Shown: one piece after another, positions 1,527-5,439 of the stretch | How positions within the stretch are numbered: the stretch's first letter is position 1 | Layout: every line of letters begins with the position of its first letter | DNA from: Escherichia coli | GTDB lineage: Bacteria > Pseudomonadota > Gammaproteobacteria > Enterobacterales > Enterobacteriaceae | Length of the DNA stretch: 5,439 bases | NCBI RefSeq assembly: GCF_003334785.1 | Contig: NZ_QOWV01000044.1 | Strand: one strand, 5' to 3' | The notes under the pieces: generated by a model | The model's input: the letters and a program-made list of their open reading frames with translations, nothing else | What the model was told of the DNA's origin: nothing | Database searches by the model: none | Program-made: the position numbers and the translations under genes

Positions 1527-3305
<1,779 letters not shown>

Positions 3306-3730
3306 TACCGGACCATTTTTTTATTCCGGACTTTCACCATACTGTTATTATCAGGTTTATTTAATTCACCATGAACCCATAATTTCACGATATTCAGATG
3401 CGTCTTTTTTATCTGAACCACTCTCCGCACTCCTGGCACTGGAATGTCAGATTCAGACCCCAGGAAGCCGTATATACTGGCAATGATACCTGTCATATAA
3501 TCATTACCTGTAATCAGTCAGGTTTTCATTTAACCAGGGACGGACAACGGCTGTTCACTGAGCGTTATATCAGAAACCTTAATGAGCTGTTACCTGTTCT
3601 GAAACGGCGGTGGGATGTGACGCCGGCAATTATCCGCGCGGTGGAATACCTTTCCCGGGTCCCGGTATCACACTGATGTTCTTTCCGTAACTGTTAATCA
3701 TGATTTAATACAGCAACACCGAATCTGCCG

Positions 3731-4804
3731 ATGACTTCTGAAGTGAAACTGAAAACCGGTGGTGACCCCCGGTCATTACCGGATTATGCTGCCCTGCGCG
3801 ATGAAATCAGCAAACTGACCCACCCGGCACGCCCGGATGTGGACTGGCGTTACGTGGAAACGCTCTGCCTGCGTCTGTATGAACACAATGGCGTGGAATT
3901 ACAGACGGCATCCTGGTACACCATCGCCCGGATGCATACAACAGGGTTAAGTGGCCTGAATGAAGGGCTGGCTCTGATTGTGGCGCTGACCCGGCATCAC
4001 TGGTCAGTGATGTGGCCGCTGAATACACACGCCCGGCTGGAAATTATTACCGGTCTGTTCAACCGTCTGCAAAAAACGCTCCGGGCCATGCCACCGGATG
4101 ACCGTGACAACCTGCCCCTGCTGTATCAGACCGAAACATTCCTGAAGGAACTGAGTGACACACTGGCCCGGTACGAACTTAAACAGAGCAGTAAAGTGGC
4201 TTTACCGGAAGCCATGGTGAAGGGATATATCACCCGTCTGGAAAATCAGCCGGTGCAGGGCGAAGCGTCGTCTCCGGTAACCCTTCCGGCTCAGGCACTC
4301 CGGTCTGATGCTCGGGACGTACAGGAACATCAGCCCCTGCCGCACTCCCGTCTGGTGTATGTTGTTTCTGAAACAAAAGCAGGGCCCACACCCTCCCTTC
4401 AAAAATCCCCTCCCACGTTTCTGAAACCGTTTGTGACTGGTGTCTGTGCGGCATTGCTGGCGGTCAGCGTGGCCATTCCGGGATGGCAGTATCTGACACA
4501 GCCATCACCGGCGGAGCAGCAACTCAGGGCGCTGCTGACACCACCACCGGATGTGCTTTCAGCAGACCAGATGACACAGCTCAGCAGAACACCCTCACTG
4601 TTAAATCATGCGTCAGAGTGGATAACCCTTTCCGGTCAGCAGATAACGCGACTGACAGAATTACCCCCGGCATATAACCTGCAGCGCAGTGCGCAGTTGC
4701 TGCAGCAACTGATGGTACTTTTCCCCGACAATCGTAAGCGTAAACTGACCGCCGTATGTAGCCATCAGACGAGAATTGGTAACTTAGACGCCCATCTGAT
4801 ATAG
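3731..4804 (+). CDS. Type VI secretion-associated ImpA_N-domain membrane protein (VasL/TssA-like); 3' end apparently replaced by IS66-family terminal sequence
   Basis: ORF of 357 aa. The N-terminal roughly 130 aa (GGDPRSLPDYAALRDEISKLTHPARPDVDWRYVETLCLRLYEHNGVELQTASWYTIARMHTTGLSGLNEGLALIVALTRHHWSVMWP) fit the ImpA N-terminal domain pattern of TssA/VasL proteins, as recalled. A single predicted transmembrane segment FLKPFVTGVCAALLAVSVAIPGW lies at about 4418-4486, consistent with VasL-like topology. The last 23 codons (from about 4733) are encoded by sequence starting with GTAAGCG, which I interpret as the IS66-family terminal inverted repeat, so the native C-terminus is probably lost. No strong Shine-Dalgarno sequence precedes the ATG. 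Confidence 0.55.
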   Translation: MTSEVKLKTGGDPRSLPDYAALRDEISKLTHPARPDVDWRYVETLCLRLYEHNGVELQTASWYTIARMHTTGLSGLNEGLALIVALTRHHWSVMWPLNTHARLEIITGLFNRLQKTLRAMPPDDRDNLPLLYQTETFLKELSDTLARYELKQSSKVALPEAMVKGYITRLENQPVQGEASSPVTLPAQALRSDARDVQEHQPLPHSRLVYVVSETKAGPTPSLQKSPPTFLKPFVTGVCAALLAVSVAIPGWQYLTQPSPAEQQLRALLTPPPDVLSADQMTQLSRTPSLLNHASEWITLSGQQITRLTELPPAYNLQRSAQLLQQLMVLFPDNRKRKLTAVCSHQTRIGNLDAHLI

Positions 4805-4818
4805 ACGGACATCTAAGT

Positions 4819-5244
4819 ATGGAATTACAGGACTGGCGAAAAGAACCTCGTAAAAACTATTCGAATGAATTCAAACTTCGTATGGTGGAACTGGCATCAC
4901 AACCTGGAGCTTGTGTTGCACAGATTGCACGTGAAAATGGCGTCAATGATAATGTTATTTTCAAATGGCTCAGGCTCTGGCAGAACGAAGGGCGTGTTTC
5001 GCGGCGTCTTCCGGTAACGACCTCTTCTGACACTGGCGTTGAATTATTACCTGTAGAAATAACGCCGGATGAGCAGAAAGAACCTGTGGCGGCCATTGCG
5101 CCGTCTTTATCCACTTCCACTCAGACCAGAGTCAGTGCCAGTTCCTGCAAGGTGGAATTCCGTCACGGTAACATGACGCTGGAAAATCCATCGCCAGAGC
5201 TGCTCACAGTGTTGATCCGTGAACTGACCGGGAGGGGAAGATGA
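4819..5244 (+). CDS. tnpA: IS66-family accessory protein OrfA (TnpA), 141 aa
   Basis: Translation MELQDWRKEPRKNYSNEFKLRMVELASQPGACVAQIARENGVNDNVIFKWLRLWQNEGR... matches my recollection of IS66/ISEc8-type orf1 proteins, which carry a helix-turn-helix-like N-terminal region. The stop overlaps the orfB start. Confidence 0.85.
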   Translation: MELQDWRKEPRKNYSNEFKLRMVELASQPGACVAQIARENGVNDNVIFKWLRLWQNEGRVSRRLPVTTSSDTGVELLPVEITPDEQKEPVAAIAPSLSTSTQTRVSASSCKVEFRHGNMTLENPSPELLTVLIRELTGRGR

Positions 5245-5439
5245 TCTCACTCCCATCAGGTACCCGTATCTGGCTCGTTGCCGGCGTTACCGATATGCGT
5301 AAATCCTTCAACGGACTGGGAGAACAGGTACAACATGTGCTGAATGATAATCCCTTCTCCGGTCACCCGGAGCAACACCTCCGCCCCTTCCGGGGTATCC
5401 TGCAGGCGGATGCGTTCACAGGTTACGACAGGTTGTTCA
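5241..5439 (+). CDS. tnpB: IS66-family OrfB (TnpB) N-terminus, partial at window edge; apparently fused in-frame to a transposase (TnpC)-like segment
   Basis: Translation MISLPSGTRIWLVAGVTDMRKSFNGLGEQVQHVLNDNPFSGH matches the IS66 orfB N-terminus as I recall it. The following residues PEQHLRPFRGILQADAFTGYDRLF do not match the expected continuation (LF.FRGRRGD...), and instead resemble the G.LQ.DGY.GY motif region of IS66 DDE transposases. The ORF is open to the window end. Confidence 0.6.
   Translation, partial: MISLPSGTRIWLVAGVTDMRKSFNGLGEQVQHVLNDNPFSGHPEQHLRPFRGILQADAFTGYDRLF

Follow-up and report, generated by a model that had tools for sequence, protein, structure and literature searches.

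The question raised by this locus is whether the 425 nt that lie between a helicase gene and a VasL-like gene hold a protein-coding gene and, if so, where it begins, whether this copy still works and to which of its neighbours it belongs. The window analysed here is a stretch of 5439 nt of Escherichia coli DNA (contig NZ_QOWV01000044.1), in which the interval in question occupies positions 3306–3730. RefSeq annotates three genes in the region 3200–3800: the helicase, of the NERD + UvrD type, under the name '3'-5' exonuclease' (1566–3305, + strand; PADLOC PDLC01087), a 'hypothetical protein' (WP_032215403.1) that corresponds exactly to an open reading frame (ORF) at 3398–3676, and an 'ImpA family N-terminal domain' pseudogene. 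E. coli TW10722 carries this region without a single difference (100% identity), and ~650 of 5426 complete E. coli genomes have matches to it. The 80–90% identity band accounts for 368 of the 659 matching records and includes the L003-type allele (see below); among the matches listed, each of those near 82.5% identity spans 393 nt versus 425 nt.

Homology across all genomic contexts starts at the ATG equivalent to position 3371 (alignment of 11 diverse DNA copies), which is common to all copies, and the commonest length of the homologs is 101 amino acids, with a start 27 nt upstream of position 3398. The small gene is delimited here as 3371–3676 (+ strand), i.e. 101 codons plus a stop codon, and is EC042_4549-like by gene order. 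An uninterrupted frame from ATG 3371 to the stop is not present in the window copy: its codon 4 (3380–3382, + strand) is a premature TAA, due to a T>A change at 3381, where all other alleles examined have TTA (Leu); TAA is also found in L001, L002 and L023. What is left open is a 92-codon ORF that begins at the internal Met10 (3398–3676, + strand). It is this residual ORF, the one carried by RefSeq, that the initial annotation had reported, overlooking both the true start and the nonsense codon that interrupts the gene. Alleles broken in other ways were also found: L004 and L011 each have a 1-bp deletion, L003 has a 29-bp deletion and, in L015, the 3' end of the small ORF is replaced. The lesson for annotation is that the correct start is the ATG upstream of the RefSeq 92-amino acid call, and that the allele should carry an internal-stop flag.

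The substitution pattern of the small gene is specific to its reading frame. In the 11-copy DNA alignment, the median Nei–Gojobori (NG86) dN/dS was 0.15 in frame, compared with 1.02 and 1.24 for the two alternative frames; a larger set (14 sequences, 89 pairs) gave 0.14 in frame versus 1.08 and 1.20 off frame. The positive controls analysed with the same script, the helicase gene and tagA (the VasL-like gene), yielded values of 0.11 and 0.32, respectively. Variable columns were distributed as 53/46/79 over the three codon positions and, in intact copies, the 101 codons are open in the ORF frame only. The small gene codes for a protein under purifying selection, a result which applies to the family as a whole and not to the window copy since its inactivation. 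Among 5.8 billion protein clusters searched, 28 matched, all from Escherichia; of the intact alleles, P0001 is the commonest (>500 contigs). The initial annotation had considered that a lack of homologs and of conservation would speak against a gene; homologs were found in these 28 clusters, in the ~650 complete E. coli genomes and in remote relatives. Two short contigs in a 'Collinsella sp.' metagenome-assembled genome (L023 and L025) also contain an E. coli-type small gene (98% and 74% amino acid identity); they probably reflect bin contamination and not an occurrence in a Gram-positive bacterium.

The residual ORF had been described as lacking a ribosome binding site, and this proved correct. 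The best values for a duplex with the anti-Shine–Dalgarno (anti-SD) sequence are +0.3 kcal/mol before ATG 3398 and −3.2 kcal/mol before ATG 3371, and no SD sequence is present in the E. coli copies of the small gene. However, the start of tagA at 3731 is equally bare (anti-SD value of 0.1) and, since that start is functional, the missing SD is no argument against coding. It had also been remarked that positions 3520–3676 are richer in GC than the rest of the ORF; the contrast with 3398–3519 is real but modest (0.516 versus 0.443). The accompanying view that the 5' half is not protein-like was mistaken. The most conserved stretch of the protein is in fact encoded by the 5' and middle part of the gene (EAVYIGNDxCHITIT...GFHLT) and forms the beta-sheet of the structural model presented below.

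More distant relatives were identified by searching 1.84 billion representative proteins with a HMMER profile, which led to four metagenomic proteins (P0031, P0033, P0034 and P0035), ~30% identical to the small protein and aligned with it from residue 1 to the C-terminus. The motifs held in common are M-x-E-P-F/Y, W-x-Y-x-V-K, Y-I-G-x-D-x-x-H-x-T-I, G-F-H-x-T and W-D-x-T...A-L-E-W. In three of the four checkable metagenomic homologs, a good to strong SD sequence precedes the aligned start (−6.1, −9.1 and −11.3 kcal/mol). No T6SS (type VI secretion system) gene or informative neighbour was found on their contigs, which, at 0.5–2.3 kb, are too short for a judgement. A further candidate, a 980-amino acid repeat protein (P0032), was rejected as a relative; its match covered 32 residues of a repeated motif (E = 1.4e-5). 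The EC042_4549-like family is defined by the present alignment; no Pfam or NCBIfam model exists. All of its motifs (W-x-W/Y-x-V, E-A-x-Y-I-G-N/D-D, H-x-T-I, G-F-H-x-T and W-D-x-T...A-x-E-Y/W) are found in the window translation, which is similar over its full length to this family of ~100-amino acid proteins. Credible homologs are all 95–120 amino acids long, or 151 when an N-terminal hydrophobic segment is added, and their starts align with ATG 3371. In P0034 (L020 1288–1743), the N-terminus bears a hydrophobic, signal-like extension (MQFRNFRTGVAFLIIFLVGIFAVLS...), so that some relatives may be exported, unlike the E. coli protein (101 amino acids), which is predicted to be without signal peptide.

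The AlphaFold2 model, computed from a ten-sequence alignment, is that of one compact domain (pLDDT 93.8, pTM 0.84), with a predicted helix at residues 3–14, five strands forming a beta-meander within residues 26–64, and two further helices (70–79 and 85–96). A Foldseek comparison with AFDB50 retrieved family members plus two uncharacterised relatives only, A0A956L1I3 (TM 0.87, 29% identity) and Q1DE95 from Myxococcus xanthus. No family was found for the small protein in NCBIfam, PADLOC, PHROGs or Pfam (searched with the single sequence and with all alignment members), a sequence-profile search of the PDB gave no match even at E = 10, and a phage collection contained no match. Searches of the family libraries, PDB and AFDB returned no family or fold match that points to a biochemical activity. 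A scan of representative genomes with the family alignment recovered Escherichia-type sequences only, the peptide pattern being too narrow to reach Myxococcus.

Is the residual ORF still a working gene? A 92-amino acid protein could be made from ATG 3398 and function as an N-terminally shortened allele, a reading that we regard as unlikely. The frame is open over 92 codons, its product is 95% identical to the protein of enteroaggregative E. coli (EAEC) strain 042 (5 differing positions), exactly this protein is called on 39 contigs, related 92-amino acid alleles exist, and Met10 is conserved in most alleles. The shortened form, however, would be deprived of residues 1–9, which make up most of predicted helix 1, and these residues are conserved even at ~30% identity (M-x-E/x-P-F/Y). 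Against it also stand the absence of an SD sequence before 3398 and the decay of its surroundings, where tagA is cut by an insertion sequence (IS) and T6SS core genes are missing; moreover, recurrence on 39 contigs can reflect clonal inheritance. In our assessment, 3371–3676 is probably a pseudogenised copy (pseudogene or truncated allele) of a genuine small protein-coding gene; this degree of confidence applies to the whole of the preferred explanation, i.e. a coding gene that forms a module with tagA, is a pseudogene here and has a putative accessory role with TagA.

The rest of the window agrees with this picture of decay. The tagA gene (ImpA_N + VasL family; 3731–4732, + strand) retains the first 334 of ~454 codons, 96% identical to residues 1–334 of the intact 454-amino acid TagA of STEC367, and gives a partial TssA/ImpA_N match in NCBIfam. 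Its homology to L021 and L022 stops at 4733, and at about this position (~4733) it is interrupted by an IS66-family, ISEc23-like element (4733–5439, + strand; tnpA at 4819–5244, tnpB from 5241). IS66 copies, a ShlB fragment and the IS66-cut tagA make up the neighbourhood, in which no T6SS core gene was found; the tagA fragment is all that survives in the window. Compared with TW10722, to which it is otherwise 99.9% identical, the window lacks two internal blocks, at 1527–1574 and 5364–5367. The first (~2.1 kb) comprises an acyltransferase gene, a GIY-YIG nuclease gene and the start of the helicase gene, and its deletion fuses the acyltransferase start codon (1527) to about codon 3 of the helicase via a 9-bp overlap; because of this junction, the N-terminus of the '592-aa helicase ORF' is chimeric. 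The second (~1.2 kb) lies within IS66. The window locus is thus a decayed genomic island and a T6SS relic, with a small gene that bears a nonsense codon and a tagA cut by IS66. The initial annotation had suspected the remnant of a disrupted gene, possibly of a T6SS cluster. This holds in so far as the stretch is coding, belongs to a T6SS cluster upstream of the VasL-like tagA and is disrupted in this copy. It does not hold as regards the 3' tail of a larger gene, since the homologs are ~100 amino acids long with starts that align with 3371, and the lesion is a codon-4 nonsense mutation; in addition, the stretch matched no Tss family. Of the other option offered at that time, a small accessory protein, the size is borne out: the product is a small stand-alone protein.

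Two observations on the left part of the window concern the island as such. A DUF4222-family small gene (234–425, − strand) has a counterpart in strain 042 (L022 2178–2369), located ahead of the sci-1 promoter region, and therefore marks an island backbone common to both. An exact RfaH ops element (GGCGGTAGCGTG; 930–941, + strand), for which the chance expectation is 0.01 occurrences, is situated upstream of an internally deleted remnant of a ShlB/TpsB-type gene (~1018–1517) and falls within an Rfam JUMPstart match that stays below threshold (890–941; 21.3 bits, gathering threshold 35).

To which neighbour does the small gene belong? In all full clusters examined, it has tssE or the helicase insertion on its upstream side and tagA on its downstream side, and its pairing with tagA is constant within the Escherichia Sci-1-type lineage. 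The simplest order, tssE–small gene–tagA, is seen in L005–L007, L021, L032, L033, L035 and L037, and the helicase-less order is also that of the RefSeq genomes STEC367, A19, MEW, RM14721 and GXU-23-25-310. In L005–L007 it reads tssJ–vgrG–effector/immunity genes–tssE–small gene–tagA, where tagA is a continuous ImpA_N + VasL gene of 450–454 codons. The other order, tssE–(133-amino acid ORF–GIY-YIG nuclease)–NERD/UvrD helicase–small gene–tagA, is carried by L008/9, L013/14, EAEC 042 (L022) and the IncF plasmid L030 of Citrobacter sp. TSA-1. The distance from the ATG of the small gene to that of tagA is 360 nt in 21 of the 28 locus entries, and a megablast comparison of the window with the helicase-less L021 shows homology over exactly 3371–4733, from the ATG of the small gene to the IS66 insertion point. 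Homology of this extent, together with the fixed spacing, indicates that the small gene and tagA constitute one module and that the helicase gene is an upstream insertion. The 54-nt spacer between the two genes (3677–3730, + strand) is itself conserved in sequence across contexts; just upstream of tagA it contains a near-palindrome, TTAATCATGATTTAA (3694–3708), which could be an operator or merely part of an AT-rich leader.

The association is loose with respect to gene integrity. Over 20 distinct loci, both genes are intact in 10, tagA alone in 4, the small gene alone in 2 and neither in 4 (Fisher P = 0.16, calculated over the 20 loci without phylogenetic correction). Furthermore, L015 has, directly after tssE and without small gene, a TagA that is 32% identical to that of the window lineage; TagA, therefore, does not need such a partner in general. 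On a point of annotation, PGAP often splits continuous tagA ORFs of 450–458 codons into three 'incomplete' pseudogene pieces (ImpA_N, hypothetical/POTRA and VasL). This is seen in L021 (14847–16211), L022 (34071–35438) and L032–L037 and affects many E. coli genomes in RefSeq, among them strain 042, whose TagA has been the subject of experiments. This three-piece annotation is an artefact.

The helicase matches the PADLOC candidate defence family 'NERD+UvrD' (PDLC01087) over its full length (E = 7e-138), and the small protein could serve this anti-phage candidate and its GIY-YIG partner, for example as a regulator, sensor or antidote, instead of TagA. We give little credence to this reading. 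It is true that the small gene begins 65 nt downstream of the helicase gene in most E. coli copies, that L015 carries the helicase together with the 5' two-thirds of the small ORF away from tagA, and that the intact allele P0001 persists in islands without T6SS, in remnants where tagA is truncated. However, in at least eight independent loci tssE adjoins the small gene, and neither helicase nor nuclease is present. Homology between contexts starts at the ATG of the small gene, which places this gene outside the inserted block; the helicase itself is often IS-disrupted in P0001 loci, and the small protein has no PADLOC match. From the loci that lack it (L005–7, L021 and L032–37, where the small gene comes directly after tssE), the helicase gene is, as judged by gene order, cargo that was inserted after tssE and before the small gene. 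In 042-type clusters, a GIY-YIG nuclease gene precedes it (L022 29864–33646), and the pair looks like a defence-like cargo block in the T6SS operon, co-transcribed under RfaH/ops control.

The 65 nt between the helicase stop codon and ATG 3371 (3306–3370, + strand; GC 0.34) form the 3' flank of the helicase module. This AT-rich flank was found only with the same helicase variant (L002–L004, L010, L015, L022 and L026) and is swapped for unrelated sequence in L005, L021, L008 and L013. It holds the inverted repeat CCGGA (3307–3311)/TCCGG (3324–3328), present as first described and put forward at that time as a weak terminator candidate. Like Rho-independent terminators, this repeat lies directly 3' of a stop codon; unlike them, it has a 5-bp stem with a 12-nt loop, is followed by ACUUUCACC without U-tract, and has a folding energy (−6.0 kcal/mol) within the range of shuffled sequences (z = −1.36; equalled or bettered by 20 of 200 dinucleotide shuffles). 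A terminator scan did not call it. The hairpin at 3307–3328 is no better than chance and is not a convincing terminator. Folding of the larger segment 3300–3410 gave z = −2.0, with 9 of 200 shuffles as good. The promoter scan of 3200–3800 returned zero sites, the single terminator-like site (3506–3523) is inside the ORF and within chance expectation, and Rfam gave no match in 3306–3730, even at E up to 1.

An intact ortholog is present in the sci-1 cluster of EAEC 042 (WP_001420595.1, 101 amino acids). It resembles the window copy in its sequence (95% identity over the 92 residues of the window), in the helicase gene upstream and in tagA 54 nt downstream; it differs in being intact and part of a complete, experimentally active T6SS, whereas the window copy has a codon-4 stop and is in a remnant island. 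In strain 042, four genes lie between tssE and tagA, and the tagA gene is presumably EC042_4550. The 'ops2' core GGTAGCTT is found at the 5' edge of the helicase gene (L022 31921), a location that fits the published ops2 site 'between EC042_4547 and EC042_4548'; from this motif and from gene order, the small gene of strain 042 would be EC042_4549. The EAEC genes in question have been named the T6SS 'accessory operon' in a 2025 preprint, in which mCherry served as a reporter at the junction of EC042_4548 and EC042_4549 and was expressed, with expression reduced in ops1, ops2 and rfaH mutants, and in which mutation of ops2 lowered sheath assembly without abolishing it (bioRxiv 10.1101/2025.02.08.637259). 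These data argue that transcription continues from the helicase gene through to the small gene and tagA, in agreement with the lack of terminator features in the window; the phenotype of the ops2 mutant is not attributable to the small gene as opposed to tagA. In the literature searched, EC042_4549 is mentioned only as a landmark for reporter insertion and no function is assigned to it. At the aligned position of the window (~1580, aligned to L022 31921), GGTGGCTT replaces GGTAGCTT, with an A>G change in the core; judging from this substitution, the RfaH-dependent ops2 element may have been inactivated in the window's lineage.

Strain 042 has a second, diverged and decayed module of a small ORF and a tagA-like sequence, downstream of the Aai/Sci-2 T6SS (L031 14730–15300). 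The small ORF, 'AaiR' (CBG37403.1, 86 amino acids, pheU island), is a paralog (~76% nucleotide and 77% amino acid identity), likewise followed by a tagA-like 5' end. It differs in that a 1-bp deletion leaves an 86-amino acid internal ORF and that the adjoining tagA-like sequence is heavily decayed. The 86-amino acid ORF is called on ~910 contigs under a name that comes from one source annotation, and no study of aaiR function was found in the literature searched. D3GV08 (86 amino acids, 78% identity), considered as the sci-1 copy of strain 042, was rejected, as it is this decayed paralog.

The remaining readings deny the small protein any part in T6SS assembly, or deny the gene itself. An orphan immunity-type or other cargo protein might simply be parked beside tagA, which appears improbable to us: no context shows an effector directly upstream, and no known immunity family was matched. 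A non-coding tagA leader in which an ORF arose by chance, or a remnant of the 3' end of what was once a larger gene, could draw on the absent SD sequence, the lack of a family assignment and the many RefSeq copies flagged as frameshifted, but both are so improbable as to be effectively excluded by the frame-specific substitution pattern, the full-length remote homologs with SD sequences, the confident single-domain model and, for the remnant, the lack of a longer homolog, the sole long match (P0032, 980 amino acids) being weak.

Under the preferred explanation, a coding gene that belongs with tagA and is a pseudogene in the window, the distal end of the T6SS-1 (Sci-1) cluster of Escherichia would ancestrally have had the order tssE–small gene–tagA. 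In the 042-type lineage, the 133-amino acid ORF, the GIY-YIG nuclease gene and the NERD/UvrD helicase gene would have been inserted between tssE and the small gene, with the hairpin-bearing segment 3306–3370 as the right-hand flank of this cargo block. In the lineage of the window, the T6SS would have been lost, leaving a relic that keeps the small gene (Leu4 changed to a stop) and an IS66-truncated tagA. Published data suggest that, in EAEC, the small gene may be transcribed without a promoter of its own, through RfaH/ops-dependent read-through out of the accessory genes that lie upstream.

TagA is an ImpA_N/VasL protein that binds TssA and ends sheath assembly (PMC6745524 and PMC7545191). 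Anchored in the membrane, TagA captures the cap formed by TssA, halts the extended sheath and keeps it in place. From position only, i.e. from conserved adjacency, we infer an accessory role for the small protein with TagA, where it might act as a binding partner or chaperone-like, non-essential factor. Like the T6SS 'tag' accessory genes, the small gene is found inside T6SS-1 clusters, co-oriented and tightly linked with tagA, and in EAEC it belongs to the RfaH/ops2-dependent 'accessory operon'. The small protein differs in that it has no sequence or fold in common with any Tss or Tag protein and is absent from other TagA lineages. More specifically, and quite tentatively, the 101-amino acid protein, with a fold unmatched in the PDB and AFDB, may be a lineage-specific T6SS accessory factor that has so far escaped recognition. 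Its site of action would be the distal end of the sheath, where it would act together with TagA, for instance by regulating or chaperoning capture of the TssA cap. It would then represent a sparse wider family (Myxococcus and metagenomes), with a conserved His/Glu/Trp surface as a binding or catalytic site.

The window itself matters little in this respect: its copy of an annotated hypothetical gene is dead and lies in a decayed T6SS remnant, and its hairpin is no functional signal. Of wider, if modest, significance is that in EAEC Sci-1, the best-studied E. coli T6SS, a small gene under clear purifying selection lies just upstream of tagA and specifies a predicted fold without matching family or structure. 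As genetic tools, sheath-dynamics assays and a tagA-deletion benchmark are available in EAEC, the hypothesis of an accessory role is directly testable there.
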